A stretch of 64,000 bases of DNA from Microbotryum violaceum. Lineage: Eukaryota. Shown here piece after piece: positions 1 to 55,900 of this stretch. The first letter of the stretch is position 1. Each line of letters opens with the position of its first letter. The notes below the pieces were generated by a model that had not been told where the DNA came from, searched no databases, and worked only from the letters and a program-made list of their open reading frames with translations. The translations under genes were made by a program, and so were the position numbers. The stretch spans positions 1,054,001 through 1,118,000 of the forward strand of contig CDLV01000008.1 of assembly GCA_001244265.2 (NCBI GenBank), read 5' to 3'.

Positions 1-1121
1 CTGTGGACGACTCTGACATCCCGGAGCGGTGATGCTCCGAAATACGCACGAATTACACACTACCGCCCGAACATCACCACTGCATAGCGAAGACAGGCAG
101 AGCTGAAAGCGCTAGGCTCGACCCCGGGACATCAAACCATCTCGTCTTGTTCTTGGGATTAGGCAGTTGAGTTGATGGGATGATGATCCTCAGTGCAATC
201 CAACTTCTTGCACCATCGCCGTTCGAGGTTGGACTCGAAGCCGACTGATTATTGCAAAAGGCAACATTGGTGTCGTTGACCCATGATTCGAAATTAGCCG
301 CGGGCGTGATGTCCCGACATTCGTACGCTTCTCAGAGCTAGCTTCCTCCCGAGAAACGTCGCATGGTCGTTCAACTACCAGGCAGTCAAATTTATTGCGT
401 GCATCAAGGCGAATCTACGAATCGCCTGTTGCTGTTAATTTCCGAACTCGTGCCCAGACTTTACTAGACCCGCGACTTCTAGTGCCTCCTGTCTTGCGTT
501 TTCGGGCTAGTCAGACGCCTGGAATGAGACTGTCAGTTGCGTGTGAAACCTGACACCGAGGACTTCCTCTCTCTCCTGTGGCAATGTCGTCATCATCGGC
601 CGAGTCACCATTGAAAAGACCCACTACAATGTTGCCGGCGCGTGTCGATCCCGCTCGAACCCGCGCTTAAGCTAGATTTAAGTCATACATTCCAGCTTGC
701 CGCTCAGCGCTCAGTCTCCGTCCCCGGATTGCTACCCCTGTCGTGAGCGGAGGCCCCGACAATATGGGGTAATGTATTGCGCCGCCGCGTGATTCTAGCG
801 AATGTTTCCTGGACTTGTTCTTCCCTCACCCTCTTTCGTGCCTGAGTCGTCTTCTACCCCGAATCTCCCGCCCACTCCATATCAACGTCTGAATTCGATC
901 GGTAGGTGGGCAAAGGGGGAACCTTGGGGTCTCTGTTCGTCGATGCCCGAACGGCCGGACGCTCGCTCATCGATCGACCGAAGAGTTTCGCGCCAGGCTC
1001 GGCTTTGCTGAATGAAGCTTGAAGTACGTGTCCGCCAATTGGTGAGGCACGTCCCTACTCCCGAGTCGAACCTTGTTGTCGTTCTTTCAAGCTCTGATGA
1101 CTTGATGGTCCTACCATCATC

Positions 1122-3141
1122 ATGGACATGACCTCATCACGCCCGATCAGCTGCCCCGACCACGTCTCAAGGCATACAGTTGCCTCCACCGCTGCCGCCA
1201 GTACCTCTCGGACCGGTTGGCAGATGCCGTCTCCTAGTTCCTCCGACGGCAGGAACCGCTCGCATCTATCCAAAACACTCCCAAGATGCATCTCCCGCAC
1301 CAGAAACCATAGCAACAGCTTTGACGAGCTGTACGCCATCGGACTAGCGTTGAATGACGACGAAGACGGAATTGCCTACGTTCCCGACGGACCGAGATCC
1401 TCGACGAATTTGGCAACGTTTTGCTCATCGAGCGAAGGCAAGACGGCGTCCGTGAACATCCATGGCAGAGCATTCGGACCGTTGTCGCAGCTTGAAGTGA
1501 GTATTTCTTCTCGTCACCATTCCATGTACCACGCTCAACACTTGACATACGAGGGAGACCATGTGACGAGGATCAGCACTACCGCGAATGCTTGCGTCGA
1601 AGACTTTGCACCGACGATCGACTCGCCGATCAGCCCTAGGACCCTCCTCCCACCTTTATTCGACGACAAGGAAGAAACCACCGTCTCTTCGGGTTCAGGT
1701 GGCACCTTGTTCGGGTCTTGGAACGGTTTCGACGCCGATGTTCTTGCACCTACTGGAGTTGCTCCTCGTGTGACGCTGCCCGTGTCCGCAGCGCCGCCGA
1801 TCTTTGACTATGACGACGATCGTCATCGAAATGAGACCGGGCGAGCCGGGGCTCGCTTGCCTTCATGTGAGATCAATGGGCTTATAACGTAAGTCTACGA
1901 ATGAAGGAGCCCTATACGGACTGAAGGGTACGAGCTGAGCCCGATATCGCCCTGCTCGTGTGGCTCGTGTGTCCTCAGTGTGGAACGTCCGAGCCTGCCT
2001 CCTATCTCGATGGCTACCGATTTAGCTCCTGGCGCACCACTCCTCCTCAGCTCTTCACCACGACATACTCCATCACCTACCGAAGTATTTACATCCCCTT
2101 CATGTAGCCACATTACCCGCTTATCCCGCGATCGAGCCAATTCGACGATCTCAGCTGTCACTTCGCTCGAATCGGCACTTCCTTCAGGAGCGCGCAGCAA
2201 GGCCTCTGTTGCTATGCGTAGGTCTTCGACTACGCCTCTCACGTCGAAGCAGAGCGATTCAGACGAATTGAAGAAGACACCCAGAGGTGCTTTCTCGAAC
2301 GCTTTACTCGATTCGTTCCACCACCTCGACCGTCGAGGCTCGCTGCCCCGCGTCTCCGCATCAACTCCTCCCGAAGCCTCGACCCTTGGATCCAGCTTGG
2401 AAGCAGATACTTCGCTCGATCCTACGCAACGAGGCCGTTCCAACTCAGTCATCAGTCTCGCAAATCTCTCCACCGTCTTCGACTACGTCGGCCGATCCCT
2501 CACCCGTTCGCTCTCCCCCAAAGCTCATCATCCTTCGACGACCCGGGAACGCCACCGCCCTTCAACCCGTCAAAGAACCTGGAGTTTCTCCGGTGCCGCC
2601 TCTTCAATCCTCGGTGGTTCCTCCAGTACGATGGCTCCCACGCATTATCGTTGGGAAGATGTCGTTTCGCTGAGAGCGAGATTTTGTACGTCCTCCGATT
2701 CTACGAGTGGACTTAACTCGTTCATGTTGGGTTTGCACGATATGGAACACGGTGGGAAGGCAAGGAGTTGGGATCCGCGAGGGGCTTGCCCAGCCGAGTC
2801 GGTCCGTACGAGCCCTTCGAGTTCGTCTTTCTCCAACATCGAGCAAAACGGGAACCCTGATCTGACCTTCACGGATCGCTGGCCGAGGGCCGAGACAACA
2901 TGGGGTGAACCGGCCCGAGTGGTCGTGGGCTACGTCGGGGGCTCGCAAAGCGTGTTCTCGCCTCGCGAGTTGACACCACCTCAAGTGAGCAATCACCTTC
3001 TCCTCACACGGCCGAAGTGCATTCTCTCAATTTGACACTCAATTTGAAAACGTTCTTCATCCTTCGTATCAGATCGTCGACAAGATCCTCAACCCTCCTT
3101 CCGTAACTTTCCCCATGAGCACCCCTCGCTCCAAGATCTGA
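1122..3141 (+). CDS. Ser/Pro-rich hypothetical protein, 3 exons (1122-1888, 1979-2984, 3073-3141)
   Basis: ORFs 1122..1892 and 1980..3035 join in frame through a GTAAGT..GCTGAG..CAG intron (1889-1978). A second phase-0 intron GTGAGC..CAG (2985-3072) leads to TGA at 3139-3141. No recognisable domain. Confidence 0.6.
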
Positions 3142-3354
3142 ACGTGCGTTCTTCGCGCACATCATAAGGAAGTTTCTCAATACTTCCTCGACATATCAAT
3201 CATTCTCTGTGTTGTACCGTGCACATGTGTGTAGTTGTAAATATGCCCCTTCTACTCTGTGGTAATATATGTCTTGAATGTACATAAAACGAGCAGTACC
3301 GACGGCGCGTGTTGAGGTTGCAAAAGTTCATTGCAAGTGATCCAGATCAGAGAG

Positions 3355-5207
3355 CTATGCTATTGCCCCGCCGTATGTTTCGTTCAACAACCGGTACAGC
3401 AATGAGCTCGGATGACCCCCCCTGCAAGGACGAACAAAACAACGCATTAGCTCCGTGTATCCCATATCTGCATCAAAGGTCGGACCGAGCCCACGAGAAG
3501 ACGTACAAGTTGGTGATATAGAGGCTGACCAATTCCGCCGGTACGACATCATAATAAGGGTTCAACACCTCCGTCTCATCGCCGGCATCCTCGCCTCCCA
3601 CAGTCGAAGTCGGCATCTTCTTCTTCGCGTCCGACGCATCCAACACTTCTTGCGGGGACCCCAGATCCCGAATCCCCCAATCGGCTTCCCCCAGGTAAAC
3701 GGGGGAGAATTTGAACATCCCACCAACAATCACGACGGGGACCCTCATTCTGTTGGCGGCAAGGGCTAGGGGGAGACTTCCGGCGATGGAGAGGAGGGCT
3801 CCATCGGCTAGGACGAGATGAGGTCCCAAAAGCACTTTGGAGCATCGTGGGAGGAGGGCGAAGATGTTGGAGTCGGGAATGAGGATCGTCGGGATACCAT
3901 GTTGCGATAAGGCGAGAGCGGTCTGACGACCTGAGTACGAGGGGGCCGTTTCAGCGACGAGGACGGTGAATTTGCGTTTGCGGGAAGCGGCTTTGAGGAA
4001 CGACAGGACCGTTTGCGAGTGCCCAAGCGTCAAGATCGTTTCGCCCGAATGGATGTGGTCGATCGATTGTTCGCCTACGGATCGATAGGTGAACTCAACC
4101 TCGTCCATAAGTTCTTGGATCGCTTCGATAAAGACGGGTTTGAGGCTAAAGCTCTTTTTGGAAAAGTCGTCCTCGAGCGCGATCTGGACATGGGGGAGGG
4201 GCTGGGTCGCGAGTGAGGGAGCTCGAAGGGAAAGGAAGGGGCGTTGGAGGATGACCGAAGCTGAGGGGGAGGTCGTAGGCGACGCATTCTTGGACGAGGT
4301 AGGTGTCGACAGAGCCGAGAGAGGTTGAGAGGCGGCGAATGCCGAGGTCGTGGCCAATCCGGGGCTGGCGAGACCTGCCGAACCCCAAGCCGACGTCGAA
4401 GGGGATGCAGGCTTGTGACCTAGAAGATCAAACATGCTTCCGAGCATCGAGCCTTGTCGTCCACCGCGCGAAGCTCCAGACAGGTCACGTTCGTTGAAGA
4501 AGGAAACGTTGGCGCTCGACTCGGGACCCAAGGCGGGTGTAGGTGGGATCGACATGGGAGTGGCGGGGCTGGAGGAAGAGGTCGCATCGGCGAGGAAGTT
4601 GGACAGTGCGGTGGCGTACTCTTCTGAGATGAGCATGATGATGCGCCGTGTCATGTTGGTGATGACGAGTTCTGCGTGGGAAGGGGACGAGATTCGCACA
4701 GACGAAGGGTAGCGCCGGTCAGCACGAAGCCATGTCACCGGACCATGCAGGTATGGCGCAAAAGACCGGCGTAGGTTCGAGGTGTGCAACACTGTTCAAG
4801 TGCTACGACCTGGACGTGTCCACGACCCAGGCCTGTGCCTCCGGCCCCTATCGTGTCGGCTCTGCGATGCGTCGAGTCAAAGAGCACGAGAACCAGAGTC
4901 CCGAGCGGCGAGCGGCTCACCTTTGGGCCCCGCATCCTGGAGCATACGGCCGATTTCATTGAGATGTTGCACGAGTTGAGGGAAGGTCGAGAACTTGGCT
5001 GCGGAAACGACTTCGCGCAAGAGTCGTACGACCTCGAGCGCGACTTGGCGAGAACCGATCAGTTGTCTGCGAGTGACGAGGAGGGCCTTAGTATGCTGGC
5101 TGCTTGAGCGTTGGACGAGCATTGCAATCTGACCTGCGTCGTAGTCGGAGTGCGAGCGCATCCATCTTGCGCCACACGTTGACCCGACTGACGGATTCGG
5201 TCGTCAT
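3355..5207 (-). CDS. GCD7: Translation initiation factor eIF2B beta subunit (spliced)
   Basis: Start MTTESVSRVNVWRKMDALALRLRRR, then exon RQLIGSRQVALEVVRLLREVVS. IF-2B domain motifs HIHSGETILTLGHSQTVLSFL, VAETAPSYSG and NPYYDVVPAELVSLYITN. Last exon GGHPSSLLYRLLNETYG. Confidence 0.9.
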
Positions 5208-13030: not shown

Positions 13031-13296
13031 TGTTGCAACAAGGACTAAGAGGTACTCCACGACTCAGCTCCGAGATACACGAATGAGATGATGAGAATAG
13101 CGTGGCTTTGCGTAACTAACCTAAGAGGTACTCCACGACTCAGCTCCGAGATACACGAGTGAGATGATGAGAATAGCATGGAGAAGGAACCCAGAAGGAA
13201 AAAAGACACAAAAGACAAAGATAGGCGCGCGCGCAGAATAAAGTATTAACCAAGACTAATAGCAATGAGTTAGGCTCTCAGACCCCACTTCTAACA
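13031..13296 (-). mobile_element. Solo LTR (266 bp) with internal 57-bp direct repeat and predicted intron
   Basis: Minus strand reads TGTTAG...CAACA. Flanks CAGTG/CAGTT form a 5-bp TSD with 1 mismatch. Repeat copies at 13045-13101 and 13121-13177. Sense orientation is inferred. Confidence 0.75.
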
Positions 13297-13356
13297 CAGT
13301 TCACCGAACTCGCCGCGTTAAAATTCTGGGGCGGTACCGGTGCTGGGGGGTGCGCT

Positions 13357-13503
13357 TGCGCTAACTCGCGCGCGCCAAATTGAGTTGGCGCAATTGAGTT
13401 AGCGCACTTGAGTTGGCGCAGTCGAGCGCCCTAGCGCACTTGAGTTAGCGCACCGCGCGCGCTTGAGTTGGCGCACTTGAGTAAGCGCACTGAGTCGGCG
13501 CAA
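13357..13503. repeat. Array of ~7 copies of a ~14-bp motif (TTGAGTTRGCGCAC) plus one inverted copy; probable transposon subterminal repeats
   Basis: Copies near 13381, 13395, 13409, 13441, 13464, 13478 and 13491, with inverted TGCGCTAACTC at 13357. The array lies just upstream of a transposase relic. Confidence 0.75.
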
Positions 13504-15642: not shown

Positions 15643-16005
15643 CTTCCTCTCTTTCTCCTTTTTCACCTCCCCCTCCCTCTTCTTCTTTCTCCAAGTTCTT
15701 TCTCTTCCCCTCCCTCTTCTCTTTTCCCCCCCCCCCCTTTTTCCCTTTCCCTCTCCTCTTTTTCTTTTTCTTTTCTTTTTCTTTTTCTTTTCTTTTTCTT
15801 TTTCTTTTCTTTTTCTTTTTCTTTTCTTTTTCTTTTTCTTTTTCTTTTTCTTTTTCTTTTCTTTTTCTTTTTCTTTTCTTTTTCTTTTTCTTTCCTCCCC
15901 CTCGCCCCCCCTTTCTTTTTCTTTTTCTTTTTCTTTTTCCTTTTCCTTTTCCTTTTCCTTTTCCTTTTCCTTTTCTTTTTCTTTTCTTTTCCTCTCCTCC
16001 CCCCC
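15643..16005 (+). repeat. ~360-bp almost pure polypyrimidine tract, (CTTTTT)n/(CCTTTT)n microsatellite
   Basis: Directly visible in the sequence. Confidence 0.95.
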
Positions 16006-29717: not shown

Positions 29718-32566
29718 GAGGGCCTTTTTGGCCTGATAATTCCAGGCGCTCGGCTGGAAATACCAGGCGCCTGGAAATACCAGGGGCTTGGGTAATACCC
29801 TCGTGAGGTGGTAATACCCGACCCACTGGTATTTCCAGCCGCGCGGGTATTACCACTTCACGAGGGGTACTACCCAAGCCGCTGGTATTTCTGTCGGTTG
29901 GGTATTCACCTTCTCAGCTGGTATTTCCACCCGAAAAGTCTCAATAGGGGCTCTTGTGCGGAGCACGACCGAGCGCAATTAGCATTAGGTTTTTTGTAAT
30001 GGGTGTCACCTTTGTAGTACTAATGCTCTGCTCATATTCGAATTTACTAAAACTTGTATTCGAACTTACTAATGCTCATGTTGGAATTTACTAATGCTCA
30101 CATCCAAAATGTAGTTTTTCAATGCAGGGTTTTCTACTGTATTATGGTATAGGTACAATACAAAGCAGCAAACTGAGGTCCACGTCCGTCACAGGCTCCT
30201 CCCATTTGTCTGGATTGTCAGATTGATCAAGATGAAACCGCCCGAAGCTCCGGCTGCCGCTCCTCTTGCCCGTTTCTTATACCCTTTAGTCGGCTCTAAT
30301 TATTCTTCCTCCTCTTCCTCTACCCGAGACTGCTCTTCCTCGCTTTCTTCTCTGCGGCGGACCCGCCTGATGATGGTGTTCTGGCTGATGCGAGAAGATT
30401 GTTTAGCGTTTGCCTCCTTCGTCGATTTTAACCGACCCGGGCCTCTTGTTCAATCGAGAATAGTGACTAACCTTCAGAGCGATCCTACGCCTAGCTCGTT
30501 GCGCAGTCTTGTGGCGAACCCGCCTGGTGATGGTCTTCTGGCTAATGCGAGAACATTGTTTAGCGTTCGCCTCCTTCGTCGATTTTGACTGACCCGGGCC
30601 TCTTGTTCAATCGAGAGTAGTGACTAACCTTTAGAGCAGATCCTATGCCTAGCTCGTTGCGCAATCTTGTGATGTCCGCCCTGGAAAGCCGTCCCATGAT
30701 CCCCGCCAACCGACAGGCCTCACGGTCGTACTGCAGTCTATACGCGGCTCAGGACATTCGCCAACACATCAATAACAGATTCTTCAGAGAGCCAGTCGCC
30801 CGATGTGACCCTTAAGAAAGCCGTGCGCTCACGAATCTGAAAGAGGATGACGAGTGAGTGCCTGAGCAAGCGCACGTTCCGTACATTCCGCGCAACTCAC
30901 ATATTTGACGATATCTTGTTGTTTTGCAGGTCCAAGACATCCCCACACAGTAGTGTTGCTTTGCGTTTTGGCTTGAATGAGCCTGAACGCGTCCTTGAGG
31001 TTGAACTCCTTAGGCGTGTGGTAGTCTGGAGTCCACATGCCGACCATAAAAGTTGATGGGGTCAGGTGTGGTGATTCCTGCCTTTACTAGTGCATCCCGT
31101 ACAACCGACGGGTCGAAGGACATCACACAGATGGTGAGCACTGAGGAGTCAGATCGACGAGATGGCGTCGCGCCCCGATCGTTGAGCCGCCGGTACTCAC
31201 GCAACCCAATCATAGTATACTCGCGCAGGCTCATAGAACCCTTGTCTTTTCAACGTATTTTCTGGCTGGAAGAAACAAGAAGACAGGTAGCCGCAGTGGG
31301 CCGATGGTGAAGGACGGCGGCGCGGTTGAAAAAGAACACGTCAGCAAATTCCCTCAACTGTGGCGGTGCAGACGCAGACCGCAAAAATTTCAGCTTTCTG
31401 TACACACGTGGACGTCATTCATGCGGTGGTTTGTTCGACTTGTCCATCCTTGTTGTACGTCTTGCCGTGGTCGACAATGTTTGTGTCATGGTAGGAAGAC
31501 GTAGGCGGGGAGGGTTGAGCTTCGACGTGGGCACAAGTGGATCGAAGGCGAAAGAAGGAAAGAAGCGCGCGGACGCATGGCGCCATTCTTCAGCGCACAT
31601 AATCAAATCTGCCTAATCGCTGCTCGTATTGCGCATTACTGTAGCCCTAATGTCCCGGATGGCCTGCCGGACTCGAGCTTCTTCGGTCGGGGGGATCAAT
31701 GGGGTCAAGTGAGGACCAAGCGCTAGGATTGGACGAAGAAAATTTTCGCGAGACACAACAGTTTGACGCGGCATTTGATTGGGGAATGGTGTCTCCTGAC
31801 CTGGAATACGAGGACCGCTCCAGCTCCAGCTCGCTCCCATTCGACGACGACGACGACGACGACGACTCCTCACGTACAAACGCTAATTTGTGCCTCTCAC
31901 TCCACAGACTTTCCTGGTAGGGAAAGTCAGGTCTCTTAATCTAAGTCGATTGGAAGCCGTCGACGCTATCGAGCGGACTCCGGTGGCCAAGCCAGCGCAA
32001 AGGCGGCAAAAAAGAAAGGCTGCTTTTGTTGTCAGTGCGCAGAGGCACCAAAACTTGTTTTTCACTCGAGGTCAAGGAACTCTGGGAGCGATCGAGATTA
32101 TAGATCTGCGCTGCATCTTAGGATCAGCTGGTCGCATCTATCGGAGGGTGGGTCGAGACTCGAGAGGAGCCTCGCGAGTATATCTGTGACCGATTGGAGG
32201 ACGAAGCTCGGCCCAATTTCTTGAGCTTGTAATCCATTCCCAGCTGTTTTCCATCTGCTAGGCTAGAAGTCATTTGGCTCATGCTGAGACAGCTGAGAGT
32301 AGCGGTATGACTAGGATCTAGATCCAATATATAAGTGGACAATACCATACCTGGCTGGGAATACCACCGGGCGAGGGTGATAATGGTGCCGGCTGGTATT
32401 ACCACGCGCCTGGGCAGAATCTCATTCGGCCGGAGCGATATCACCTTGCGACCTGGCAATACCCAGGCGTCTGGGTAATACTCGACGGCCTGGTATTTCC
32501 AAGTGACGGCTGGAATTACCACGCGCTTGGGTAAAATCAGCGCGCGCGTGGAAATGACACCCTTCC
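29718..32566. mobile_element. Degenerate non-autonomous TIR-like element with motif arrays at both ends and a decayed minus-strand spliced ORF
   Basis: Clusters of CTGGAAATACC/GGTATTTCCAG/GGTAATACC motifs in both orientations at ~29735-29930 and ~32340-32560. Ends GAGGG.../...CCCTTC. No clear TSD; boundaries approximate. Confidence 0.45.
30356..30671. repeat. Tandem duplication of a ~157-bp unit (exon plus intron on the minus strand)
   Basis: ACCCGCCTG at 30361 and 30518; CTTGTG ends at 30513 and 30671. Each unit contains GTTAGT..GCTAAAC..YAG on the minus strand. Confidence 0.85.
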
Positions 32567-45831: not shown

Positions 45832-47853
45832 AGTACGTCGCATGCTGTGTTAGTCAGACCTGAGACAATTCCGCTGACTGTGACCGTGTGATATACAGTG
45901 TCTCTTTCCAACAAGCTCTCGATCAAGGACGTCCAGCTCAAGGGCAAGAAAGTGCTCATCCGGTACGTGCGGCCTGTTCGCTTGAGCTGGTGCCCGCCCT
46001 CCTGCCCCACCACCGTCCACGGGCTCACAAGGCTGACGAGATGTCACGCCCATCTACAGAGTCGACTTCAACGTCCCTTTCGATGGACCCAAGATCACAA
46101 ACAATCAGGTTAGTGGGTGCGACAGCTTGTAGTGTCTCTTGTCGGTGGCTCTCTGCGGTGTCCTGTTCTCCGAAATCCATGCGGAGCTCAGTCCTGGTCG
46201 ACGACGATGGAGCGCATCGATGAACGGCGCATATGAACGGCGCATGGACACCCACTGTGCATGTCACGCACTTGAGACCGCGGTGCAGTGATGCTACGAC
46301 GCTACCAGCCCTTTATAATGCTGGACCGAATCAAAAGAGATCGCTATTGCAGCATTGCGTACGAGCTAAGCACCCCGTTGTTGGCACTGGAGCTGACCCA
46401 ACCAATATGCGCCCCTAAACCCGCACTTCTCATATGGTGACCCTGCAACCTCTCCTACTCCAATCCTGTGCCATGCATGGTCTCATTTCGAGGCCACAGC
46501 GCATCGTCGCTGCCATCCCCACGATCAAGCACGCCCTCGACCAAGGCGCCTCGGCCGTCGTGCTCATGTCCCACCTCGGTCGACCGGACGGCCACGTCGT
46601 AAAGAAGTACTCGCTCAAGCCCGTCGCCAAGGAGCTCGAGTCGCTCTTGTCCAGGTCCGTCACCTTCCTTCCCGACTGCGTTGGTGAGGAGACCGAAAAG
46701 GCCGTTGCCAACGCCAAGGACGGCCAGATCATCTTGCTCGAGAACCTGCGCTACCACGCCGAGGAGGAAGGCTCGTCCAAGGACAAGGACGGCAAAAAGA
46801 CCAAGGCTGACCCCGAGGCCGTCAAGAAGTTCCGAGCGAGCCTGACCAAGCTCGGTGACGTCTACGTCAACGACGCCTTCGGTACCGCCCACCGAGCGCA
46901 CTCCTCCATGGTGGGCGTCGACTTGCGCCAAAAGGCCGCCGGTTTGCTCATGACCAAGGAACTCGAGTACTTTGCCAAGGTCCTCGAGGAGCCGCAACGC
47001 CCATTCTTGGCCATCCTTGGTGGTGCCAAGGTCTCTGACAAGATCCAGCTGATCGAGAACCTCCTCGACAAGGTCAGTCCGCATACATCTAAGGTCCCAA
47101 TTCAGGATTTAGACTGACCGACAGGGGATTGGACTCGATGCAGGTCAACTCGTTGATCGTTTGCGGTGGTATGGCCTTCACCTTTAAGAAGACGCTCGAG
47201 AAGGTTGAGATCGGTACCTCCCTGTTCGACAAGGACGGTGCCCAGAAGGTTGCCGAGTTGGTCGAGAAGGCCAAGGCCAAGAACGTCGAGCTCGTCTTCC
47301 CCGTCGACTACATCACCGCCGACAAGTTTGCGAAGGACGCCCAAGTCGGCACCGCAACCGACAAGGAGGGTATTCCCGAGGGCTGGATGGGTCTCGATGC
47401 CGGAGAGGAGTCACGCAAGTTGTTCGCTGAGGCCATCAAGAAGGCCAAGACGATCCTGTGGAACGGCCCCGCCGGTGTCTTTGAATTTGACAACTTTGCC
47501 AAGGGGTCCAAGGCGACGTTGGATGCCTGCATCGAGGCCAAAGAGAATGGCGCTACTGTCATCGTTGGAGGTGCGTTACCGCATCTACACTACTTTGAGG
47601 ATCACACAGCTGATGCGATTGCTTGCTTTCGCCTCACTCTGCAGGTGGTGACACGGCCACCGTTTGCGCCAAGTATGGCGCCGAGGAGAAGCTCTCGCAC
47701 GTCTCGACAGGTGGTGGAGCCTCGCTCGAGCTCCTCGAGGGCAAGGTAAGTGTCTTTGAGAAGTGTCACAGTCTGCGACATATTCATGAGCTGACCGTGC
47801 CGCTTTTCAACTCACAGGAATTGCCCGGTGTCAAGGCCCTTTCCGAGAAATGA
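45832..47853 (+). CDS. PGK1: Phosphoglycerate kinase (7 coding exons; start codon split A|TG)
   Basis: [89 protein letters not shown]. Confidence 0.97.
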
Positions 47854-52973: not shown

Positions 52974-55900
52974 ATGTCATCATCCTCATCGCCATCATCC
53001 ACAGACTTTGTTTTAGAATGGTCCTCTCAGCGAGCTTCTGCCGGCTATGTGTGCCGATACTGTGGTGGCGAGCGCATGTGGTATCGTCGCGCCGTCCGAC
53101 ACGCCACGACCAAGAAGCACCTCGACGCGTACAACAGTTGAGCCGATCCCGCTGTCAATTGGACCAACCGGTTACTGCAACCCACGCCTCAGGCGCTCTC
53201 GAGCAGCGACGAGGCGGACTTGGTCGATTCCAATCAAAATCCGGCAGAGACCGGAACAGTAGGCCACTCTCTGCTTGCTGTCGCTGGCGAGATCATCAAG
53301 TCGTCTGAAAGCGTGCCTGCTTCCAGTCCGTCCCCGCCAAGTGATCACGAGGATTCCGTTCTCGACCACGCCCTCTTCCTTCCAGAAGGCAATTGCTCGC
53401 CCTATTTCCAGGGCACTGGCTCCAAGTCCGACAGCGAGGTCGAGATCGATGGCGGGGCGGAGGAAGAAGAGTCGGATGACTGGGTTAAGACTTGGGCCAC
53501 TGCGGGCTCCACCAGTGAGTGGGGACGAGCAATGATGCAATGCCCCTCGTGAATTTTCCACTAACGCAAGTATTGCCCAACTTCTGGGCTGTAGCTGTGG
53601 TGACAGGCAGCCCCGCGATGCCCACACGGCTGGGCGTGCGCAACTACACAAGCGTACCTGATTCGTCGCATCCCTGGTATCCCTTCCCCAGTCAGAATGT
53701 GCGCCGATCTACTTTCTTTGCTCCGGAATCACGCGATCGGCCAAGAGCTGACCCCCTTGCGAACATAGATGATGATCATCGTCGTGTTTCTCAGATCCCA
53801 TAAACGCCGGATCAGCGTGCAAGAGCTGGACGACATGCTTGCATTCGCCAAGGCCTTCGGCGTGCAGGGTCTTCCTGCGGCCTCTTCCGTCAAAAGTTTC
53901 TGGCCAACTTGGAAAAAGAGATTCCCCTCTTCAAGCCCCGCCAGTATACGAAGGAGGACGGACGCTCTCTTCACGTGGTGTCGCCTGGCGATTACGTCGC
54001 TGCGGTAGGTTTTAGGAACCTGAGGCCCGAGGCACGATGTACGTAAGCACGAGAGCCGAAGAAGATAGTAAAGATAGTTCGAGCATTGCAAGACTAACCT
54101 GAGGCCCGAGGCACGATGTACGTAAGCACGAGAGCCGAAGAAGATAGTAAAGATAGTTGGAGAAGAGAGAGAAGCGCTAAGGGCGCGCGCACTTGGAAGG
54201 CTAGAGGCGCGCGCGCGGCTAATATCAACAACTAGATACTAAACTATTCTAAGTGGGATGAAACAGTAATACCCTTTTGACAGTAGGTCCCTGCGATTCC
54301 GTGTTAATGGTCGAGTGCCTTTGACTGAACCGTTTCCGGGAACGAACAATGTTGCACAGCATTTTGCAACGCCTTCATTGGCCCCTCTCGTGCAGCATTA
54401 TCCCGAGTTTCAGCCTTCTCAAGTCGATTCCGCCTATCACACTCGCCGCTGGCTCACTGACCTTCCTCCCAGATTTTCGGCCCCCATGGCCCGCGTCAGG
54501 GGCGACGACTACTTTGTTGACGAGATCATCAAGCTCAAGGGTGTTGATGATATGCACTGGTTCGTCGGCCGCTTCGTCTCTTTCGAAAGCAAGGTGCACG
54601 CTTTCGTTTGCTTTGCAGCCATCAAGTCTATCTTTCGGGTCGAGGTCAAGCTGCCCGCTGCTGGGCGTCAACTCATAAAGTGGCCACAAATGTCCCCTTC
54701 GCGATGGTGCCTGGTACCTGTCGAGCAGTTCGATCATCCAGTTCTCGAGATCGAACAGATGTTCCTCAATGTGACAATTGGTGAGTACCTCACCCTTTCT
54801 TGCAACCTCTGCCGACGTACTGTGCGCTCATACTGGCTGAGTGAACACGGCGCGCTAGTCGTACTCGACCCGAACATAGAGCCTGAGGAACCCCAGCGGT
54901 TGCTACCCTTGCGATCAACCGATCGTCTTCTAGCGAAAGGAACATTGCTTCTTGTGGCCCCCCTGCGGCTGTTCCTCGATGACATGGCCGCGACGGAGTC
55001 CAAGCGATGGAACCCGATGTATACAGTAAATCGAACCCTCCACGGGCACGCAGGTTGAGCGGCGGCCGTCACTGACACTCCTTTCGTCTGACCCGGGATC
55101 CCCGCAGGCATCTATTCAGAACCTAGCCCTTCCCTCTACAGTGCTTCGGCGAAGATATATGCTGCATCACACCGGTGTCACCAACATCGACGTGGATGCC
55201 CTTGATCTCGCCGAAGTTGTGCTTGTCTTGATTTCGTTTGTCACGCCTCGGTGCGCTCCTCTATCGCTTGGGAGCCCTCACTGATTGCTCGAACTTTTGA
55301 TACTCGCCTAGAGAAACCATGGAGAACAATCCGATCGAGTGTTACAGCTCAGCGGCAGGTGGTGATGTCATGATTCGCACGCCGGTCTTGTACTCCGTAC
55401 ACGACTCGCCGATGGCAGCGGCGTGCTCAGCGAGGGCAGGACGCGGAATGTTCCCATGCATCCGATGTCGATGGGGAGGCTCATGGAAGGAGAGGCTTAC
55501 AGAGGCTCAGATGGTCTTGTTCTTCAAGGTGCGCCTGCCACTGCCCGTCCCTTCTGGCCGTTCTTCGCAGTGGTGCTAATTCGTGATCCTGTGCCTCCGC
55601 AGTGTACATGCCAGCTGGATGGCAACACCACACGTGAAGAAGCGCTGCAACAGATCGAAACCTACGCGAGTGGGCTCGCGATGACGAGCGTCAAAGAACA
55701 ACAGACCTCGACGGGCACCCACGACGCATGGACAAAGCGAACACTGCAGCGCCTCGCCAACTGCTTCAAAAAGGAAATGAAGCACAAGAGCTTCGGGGTA
55801 AAGCCCGAGACCTTAGAGGTGAAAGCCTACAACAACATGGGCCCAACGGCCAAGACGCGCGTAAAGACGGCGAATGAGGCGCGGGCTCTGGAGGAAGTGG

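Follow-up and report, generated by a model that had tools for sequence, protein, structure and literature searches.

A repeat–spacer–repeat module resembling a leader intron in a solo LTR of Microbotryum violaceum

We describe a solo long terminal repeat (LTR) of 273 base pairs (bp), hereafter LTR #2, located on the minus strand of a 64,000-nucleotide (nt) stretch of Microbotryum violaceum DNA (contig CDLV01000008.1 of assembly GCA_001244265.2, positions 1,054,001 to 1,118,000; hereafter the window, to which all coordinates refer). The insertion is recent and polymorphic and, as an insertion, ordinary. Its 3′ third contains two near-identical repeats on either side of a short spacer that occurs only once, and the same arrangement is present in LTR #1, another LTR of the window whose repeats cannot be aligned with those of LTR #2. 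The borders of this module resemble splice sites, and the spacer together with the second repeat has the length of a local intron. That the module is really spliced is plausible but unproven, and we regard the question as evenly balanced.

Borders, empty sites and family of the insertion

LTR #2 (54010..54282; TGTCAAAAGG...CCTAAAA) is a discrete 273-bp insertion framed exactly, at both ends, by copies of the 5-bp target-site duplication GTAGG (54005..54009 and 54283..54287, plus strand), the first of which coincides with the five opening bases of a host-gene intron's 5′ splice site. Parts of the stretch are contained in 20 of 24 listed public sequencing runs, and we compared the region 53600-54700 with contigs from four of them (X1, X5, X18 and X20). 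Empty sites were found in three of these four. The entire depth of X1 at the site comes from its contigs 4 and 5 (86.1 and 39, respectively), and past 54010 their next 16 letters are identical to the sequence right of LTR #2. X5 contains both alleles, a filled one (contig 25, identical to the window, depth 12.5) and an empty one (contig 26, depth 16.7). Finally, a contig of X18 joins 54004 to 54283, skipping 278 positions, i.e. the 273 of the LTR and 5 of the target duplication.

LTR #2 belongs to a family with many copies. The summed contig depth over LTR #2 is about 4 to 50 times that of its flanks in the three DNA-like runs (614-5169 over the LTR versus about 100-136 in the flanks for X1, 174-540 versus about 6-50 for X5, and 41-172 versus about 6-13 for X18); contig depth does not equal copy number, and we read these values solely as the sign of a dispersed multi-copy family. 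Between 32 and 86 contigs matched per DNA-like run, with loose ends and differing flanks that break exactly at 54010 and 54282. No second copy of LTR #2 was found in the window by blastn.

The flanks of these family copies, visible as 30-letter consensus ends alone, are informative on both sides. The loose ends beside 54010 read GGGCTCATAA in four X18 contigs (agreement 0.8) and GGCTCATAACC in two X20 contigs (agreement 0.95). A run of 10-11 nt in them matches exactly the anticodon arm of an annotated initiator transfer RNA (tRNA), that of the Escherichia coli metZ gene. This anticodon arm is also common to eukaryotic initiator tRNA. Papers on initiator tRNA contain the complement of the same 10-11-nt string, which is also part of an oligonucleotide in a paper on Met-tRNAi, and a half-tRNA primer site of this kind has been given as typical of Ty5. 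No tRNA gene was found in the window itself. On the other side, directly upstream of TGTCA and beside 54282, X1 and X5 contigs share a purine-rich stretch (...GGCTGGGTGGG on the sense strand) that looks like a polypurine tract.

The presence of a primer site and a purine tract beside family copies indicates that full-length relatives exist, in which the repeats lie in the terminally redundant (R) and unique 5′ (U5) regions, next to the primer site. Since the window copy has neither the primer-site flank nor the purine flank, it corresponds to a solo LTR. The preliminary description of this DNA had called it so and had placed it on the minus strand; the target duplication, the empty sites in three related runs, the multi-copy family and the two flanking signals support the first statement, and the position of the initiator-tRNA primer site on the 54010 side and of the purine-rich tract on the 54282 side supports the second. 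We are highly confident that LTR #2 is a recent solo LTR of the Ty1/copia type (Ty5-like and half-tRNA-primed), lying antisense in an intron that a plus-strand gene already possessed.

The repeat–spacer–repeat module in two LTRs and their relatives

Read on the minus strand, LTR #2 starts with a part resembling a unique 3′ (U3) region (54163..54282), which includes an AT-rich GATATTAG (54226-54219), a GC box GCGCGCGCGCC (54216-54206), a second GC run (54190-54181) and a CT-rich box ending in CTTCTCC(A), or CTTCTCCA (54174-54158), that extends into the start of the first repeat. A role of this U3-like part as promoter or transcription start may be inferred. Repeat 1 (67 nt, 54096..54162) ends in CCTCAG followed by GTT. 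The spacer (12 nt, 54084..54095), which together with the preceding GTT reads GTTAGTCTTGCAATG, completes a donor-like hexamer GTTAGT (54098-54093) and leads through GCAATGC (54089-54083) into repeat 2 (67 nt, 54017..54083). In repeat 2, GCTTAC (54048-54043) resembles a branch site and CCTCAG (54025-54020) an acceptor; GCTTAC is present in both repeats, and CCTCAG ends both. The LTR closes with a 10-nt terminus, GTTCCTAAAA (54010..54019), a candidate for the start of exon 2 and the end of U5, which the primer-binding site adjoins in full-length relatives. By this geometry, spacer and repeat 2 are predicted to form a GT-AG leader intron of 79 nt (54020..54098), which equals the repeat period. 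The two repeats match at 66 of 67 positions (99%), with starts 79 nt apart, and Tandem Repeats Finder reports a period of 79, 1.8 copies and 98% matches (score 285). All features listed in the preliminary description were located where it had placed them; its identical repeats are, more exactly, near-identical.

LTR #1 (266 bp, 13031..13296, minus strand; TGTTAG...GCAACA) contains the same module. Two repeats of 61 nt (13181-13121 and 13105-13045), 97% identical and spaced by 76 nt, flank the spacer GTTAGTTACGCAAAG (13120-13106), and the predicted intron of 76 nt (13120-13045) is followed by a 14-nt terminus. The tips of LTR #1 are canonical (TGTT...AACA), and its target duplication matches at 4 of 5 positions. 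Immediately before LTR #1, read in the sense direction, 13346-13502 contains an array of about eight imperfect 14-nt units TTGAGTTAGCGCAC, accompanied by one inverted copy and by GC-rich palindromes.

The preliminary description had held that the repeats of the two LTRs are unlike and that their geometry is conserved without their sequence, and both statements are borne out. In global alignments, the observed score was met by 1235 of 2000 shuffles for the repeats and by 225 of 2000 shuffles for the U3 parts. What the two LTRs have in common is a small number of islands at corresponding distances, namely TGTyAnAAG, GCGCGCGCGCCT, then CTTCTCCA where the repeat begins and AGGTTAGTnnnGCAAnGC behind repeat 1, and 12 of 16 spacer positions are common to both despite the unalignable repeats. 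The motif GTTAGTNNNGCAANGC occurs in the window only at the two spacers; shuffled sequences contain on average 0.23 matches, and two or more in 4 of 100 shuffles, in a test that is partly circular since the motif was derived from these same two sites. Both LTRs also carry the self-complementary GC box GCGCGCGCGCC(T) (54206-54216 and 13224-13234, minus strand), about 40 nt upstream of CTTCTCCA. This box could be a promoter element; its pairing with the GC-rich stems of a tRNA primer would be pure speculation.

The module was searched for in other sequence collections. A metagenome scan with AGGTTAGTnnnGCAAnGC(4-5 nt)CTAT recovered 26 loci, none with a repeat flanking the motif, and a best ungapped flank score of 10, compared with 61 and 55 for the window LTRs scored with a slightly different flank offset. 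In viral contigs, an 18-nt motif matched 52 loci without flanking repeats (best flank score 9), and we consider the matches of both scans to be due to chance. A search of both LTR regions against Rfam gave nothing near threshold, the sole match (16.8 bits against a gathering threshold of 58.6) being outside the LTR.

Within the family of LTR #2, the module is present in diverged copies. Contigs spanning repeat 2, spacer and repeat 1 were found in X1 (6 and 7), X5 (27 and 28) and X18 (12 and 14), with 8-12 differences each. They include at least three spacer variants, with insertions after GTTAGT or at the border of repeat 2. Among the differences listed, none is a substitution in the GTTAGT hexamer; 42 further differences exist. 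Five variant sites are listed in the repeats, and four of them pair up at a distance of exactly 79 nt, with the same substitution in both members (C>T at 54048 and 54127, A>T at 54063 and 54142). A one-base deletion likewise recurs 79 nt apart, at 54026 and 54105. These sequence comparisons indicate that the repeat–spacer–repeat architecture is a feature of the lineage and that its two copies evolve together.

Intron-like features and competing readings of the module

We compared the module with 16 introns of the window: 15 hand-picked introns, one per locus with the cleanest signals, and the RNA-backed intron at the insertion site. The 15 came out of a set of 92 GT...AG candidates, each with a CTRAY motif and each linking two open frames of 240 nt or more; loci with competing solutions or with candidates on both strands (e.g. 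47049-47143) were dropped. The predicted introns of LTR #2 (79 nt) and LTR #1 (76 nt) fall within the local range of lengths (55-108 nt, median 77.5). Their donors score 7.9 and 7.1 bits, respectively, compared with leave-one-out scores of 3.2 to 11.3 bits for the local introns, and rank at percentiles 98.6 and 97.5 among all GT sites in the window. Their acceptors score 4.5 and 3.2 bits (local introns, −1.8 to 8.4 bits), at percentiles 90.7 and 83.0 among all AG sites. The sequence AG GTTAGT is also present at other likely host donors (46107 and 30630/30473).

The four runs include one that behaves as RNA. Two segments of the plus-strand host gene are absent from contigs of X20, which comes from sister organism C. 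The first is 53699-53768 (70 nt; GTGCGC...CTGAC...ATAG); the second is skipped by contig 23, in which the counterpart of 53974-54003, identical at 28 of 30 letters, adjoins 54359 and the sequence after it. Both are canonical GT-AG introns, whose removal joins the exons in frame (...GDYVAA HFATPS...), so that X20 is read as RNA-derived. X18, with even cover across introns, behaves as DNA. Two X20 records (20 and 21; 296 and 196 nt), about 93-96% similar to the window LTR, have a single repeat between U3 and an 11-nt terminus, which the primer site follows, and lack both spacer and second repeat; we rely on these two contigs, which run across the region, and take the X20 depth of 0 at the spacer (54084-54095) as no evidence by itself. 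By comparison, record 12 of the DNA-like run X18 contains the primer-site flank, the terminus, repeat 2, the spacer and repeat 1. The one-repeat pattern of X20 and the two-repeat pattern of X18 would agree with splicing, and a single-repeat genomic copy would fit equally well.

We propose the conserved CT box (CTTCTCCA) as the start of transcription, in which case repeat 1 would represent both the R region and exon 1. The conserved AG GTTAGT located right after repeat 1 would be the 5′ splice site, and the spacer and repeat 2, ending in YAG, would form a leader intron of 76-79 nt. Splicing would join repeat 1 to the LTR terminus and the primer-binding site, yielding the same RNA as a one-repeat LTR. 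Template switching of the reverse transcriptase between the repeats (unequal strand transfer) may keep the two copies alike and generate one-repeat copies, and selection would retain the intron-bearing two-repeat form, possibly through better expression of intron-containing transcripts in basidiomycete-like hosts. Hosts of the basidiomycete type are reported often to require introns for the accumulation of messenger RNA (mRNA) (PMC3744415, PMC4935854, PMC7017817). We give this whole proposal for the 3′ third of LTR #2 even chances of being correct.

Several observations weigh against the proposal. The tips of LTR #2 are TG...AA instead of the usual TG...CA, with the same ...CTAAAA end in the family contigs; non-canonical tips are known among LTR elements. 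Both branch motifs, CTTAC and CTGAG, lie 21-26 nt from the AG and deviate from the local CTGAC at one of five positions, in a comparison that is weak since the intron set was itself selected for a branch motif; one RNA-backed host intron likewise has an imperfect branch, CTGAA. A T at donor position +3 is found in none of the 16 local donors. The 79-nt intron predicted in the preliminary description is plausible in length, donor and acceptor, which are within the local range; its branch-like motif agrees less well. RNA folding of leaders and single repeats revealed no unusual structure that would point to a structural role (z-scores −0.92, −0.63, +1.56 and 0.00). X20 records 20 and 21 include U3 and 74 nt beyond it and so are not simple LTR-initiated transcripts; they could be either an assembly of reads from 5′ and 3′ ends or a read-through transcript. 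The single-repeat contigs of X20 also come from an organism other than those of the DNA-like runs, and may reflect single-repeat genomic copies.

The paired variants are subject to similar reservations. Their shares in X18 are unequal, with T at 29.4 of 29.4 depth at 54048 versus 4.84 of 51.3 at 54127 for the first pair, and at 24.6 of 39.5 at 54063 versus 0 of 154 at 54142 for the second, which implies either that the repeats are not identical in every copy or that single-repeat copies are admixed. Moreover, 8 X1 contigs and 25 X5 contigs fit two places; contigs collapse identical repeats, so that part of the pairing may arise from mapping. On the question raised in the preliminary description, whether the repeats of one LTR change together while the families diverge, the variants 79 nt apart speak in favour, and the unequal shares and the contig collapse are qualifications.

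A less probable but serious alternative holds the module to be a tandem duplication in R/U5 that is not spliced. Its repeats would then act as a duplicated cis element (providing strand-transfer homology, a packaging signal or a transcription-factor site) and the spacer as a binding motif, e.g. a site through which the U1 small nuclear ribonucleoprotein governs the choice of poly(A) sites in unspliced RNA. The number of repeats would vary, and the copies would be homogenized, through unequal strand transfer, and the single-repeat RNA contigs would derive from single-repeat genomic copies. Direct repeats are frequent in retroelement LTRs and are lost or gained in reverse transcription, which counts in favour of this alternative, as do the imperfect branch motifs and the X20 contigs with U3, indistinguishable from genomic single-repeat copies. 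In X1, the depth of 614 in the spacer bin, versus 1866 and 3457 in the neighbouring repeat bins, also points in this direction, as many copies may lack the spacer or differ in it. However, an unspliced duplication leaves unexplained the AG GTTAGT after repeat 1, the YAG end, the coincidence of the period with local intron length and the occurrence of all this in two unalignable families. An unspliced R should also place the spacer in RNA if the expressed copies carry it, but it is absent from the two X20 primer-site contigs.

The spliced reading includes a special case, rather improbable in our view, in which the intron would renew itself. The 5′ leader would be spliced and the 3′ end of the RNA would retain repeat 1, spacer and repeat 2; minus-strand strong-stop DNA, consisting of repeat 1 and the terminus, would land on repeat 2 at the 3′ end and thereby rebuild the intron. 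Repeat 1 would overwrite repeat 2 in every cycle, and the progeny of a spliced RNA would still inherit the intron. This single step would explain why the homogenized unit extends from the CT box, the presumed start, exactly to the donor AG, as well as the paired variants and the single-repeat by-products. An engineered precedent is provided by split-intron retroviral vectors, in which, according to a review, the donor is copied from the 3′ LTR to the 5′ LTR (PMC3182074). A weak objection is that self-renewal needs the spacer at the 3′ end of the RNA, and no contig of X20, which comes from organism C, has the spacer although U3 is represented; the unequal variant shares of X18 disfavour overwriting in every cycle.

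Independent chance duplications without function in both LTRs are extremely improbable: each LTR alone is a mere 1.8-copy tandem repeat, but the plain duplication of a 79-nt unit is rejected because it would have copied the spacer, which occurs once, and, in line with the preference for function over chance in the preliminary description, the geometry and 12 of 16 spacer positions are common to families with unalignable repeats and several diverged contigs in three runs retain the module.

Host gene, neighbouring sequences and known systems

The host-gene intron that contains LTR #2 (54005..54359, plus strand; GTAGGT...CACAG) measures 355 nt in the window and 77 nt in the empty allele. LTR #2 integrated exactly at the exon-intron border, and its first base, T, regenerates the GTAGGT hexamer, so that the 355-nt intron should remain removable. 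The possibility that LTR #2 is itself a new, introner-like host intron was rejected, as the empty allele already has the 77-nt intron. At 53891 (plus strand), the A-run of the window allele is one A shorter than in X1, X18, X20 and the X5 empty allele. The missing base shifts the host reading frame, and the LTR-bearing allele looks like a frameshifted, decaying gene copy; a homopolymer assembly error is a possible explanation of the difference. The X5 empty allele shows several single-nucleotide polymorphisms and a 4-nt insertion at 53957 (within 53852-54300), and the two alleles of X5 suggest a heterozygous diploid, dikaryotic or mixed sample.

No Pfam family was detected in eight neighbouring open reading frames (ORFs). 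An Atlas look-up of the host ORF returned a weak match (score 0.87) to Plavaka-transposase-like basidiomycete clusters, which we take as a lead only to the identity of the host gene and to the phylum. Elsewhere, the window encodes common eukaryotic proteins, namely GDA1/CD39, a Mot1-like SNF2 protein, an acyl-CoA dehydrogenase and eIF2B. A 157-nt tandem duplication (30361-30672, minus strand; 2.0 copies, 91% matches) has units composed of AAG followed by GTTAGTCAC...TTAG or ...TCAG, resembling a duplicated exon with a GTTAGT...YAG intron; its sequence suggests a possible exon-intron duplication and the use of GTTAGT donors in this genome region. Another part of the window (15648-15990) contains CT-rich repeats of 21-37 nt and, following them, a long (TCTTTT)n tract, a microsatellite of pyrimidines that spans about 234 bp.

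Among known systems, LTR #2 recalls the Ty5/copia elements primed by half of the initiator tRNA-Met, with which it shares a 5-bp target duplication and the TGT start. The likeness was judged from the LTR and its flanks. LTR #1 has the yeast-like tips TGTT...AACA, whereas LTR #2 has AA instead of CA. A further difference is the repeat–spacer–repeat with splice-site-like borders in R/U5, an arrangement that we know of neither in Ty5 nor in copia.

The module also resembles the outcome of the Rogers model, in which introns are said to be created by tandem duplication of an exon segment containing AGGT. As in that model, the intron would close with a copy of the upstream exon's end and be as long as the duplication period, and splicing would restore the unduplicated sequence. 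In contrast to the model, the module contains an unduplicated spacer of 12-15 nt, conserved between the families; the first bases of the intron and of the downstream exon agree only in GTT in LTR #2 and not at all in LTR #1; and the structure lies inside an LTR, where its copies stay alike across family divergence.

Parallels also exist among retroviruses. Murine leukaemia viruses carry tandem enhancer repeats in U3, which are direct LTR repeats of similar size whose number changes by template switching. Those repeats are directly adjacent to each other, whereas the repeats of LTR #2 lie beside the primer site, in R/U5, with a conserved donor-like spacer between them. In human T-cell leukaemia virus type 1, bovine leukaemia virus and foamy viruses, the major splice donor is located inside R. 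The 5′ splice site in the leader is a common feature, but the acceptors of these viruses are far downstream, whereas here both sites are inside the LTR.

A functional analogy would exist with split-intron retroviral vectors, in which a donor carried by the LTR is copied by reverse transcription, so that transcripts of the next generation contain an intron (Ismail et al., 2000, as presented in the review PMC3182074). These vectors are engineered, and, in the same account, have their donor placed where U3 meets R in the 3′ LTR, their acceptor outside the LTR and no duplicated exon. A narrow literature search by title and abstract found no published intron located wholly inside an LTR, which is not proof that none has been published, and among the papers listed on stalled spliceosomes and retrotransposons none dealt with introns inside LTRs.

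Retroelements normally cannot keep introns in the RNA that is copied, and hosts of the basidiomycete type often need them. If true, an intra-LTR intron that derives from a duplicated R, with a geometry retained between families of otherwise diverged sequence, would offer retrotransposons a new means of reconciling this host need with the loss of introns in reverse transcription, and would represent a natural counterpart of the engineered split-intron vectors. Even if it is not spliced, the module is a clear example of concerted evolution within an LTR.

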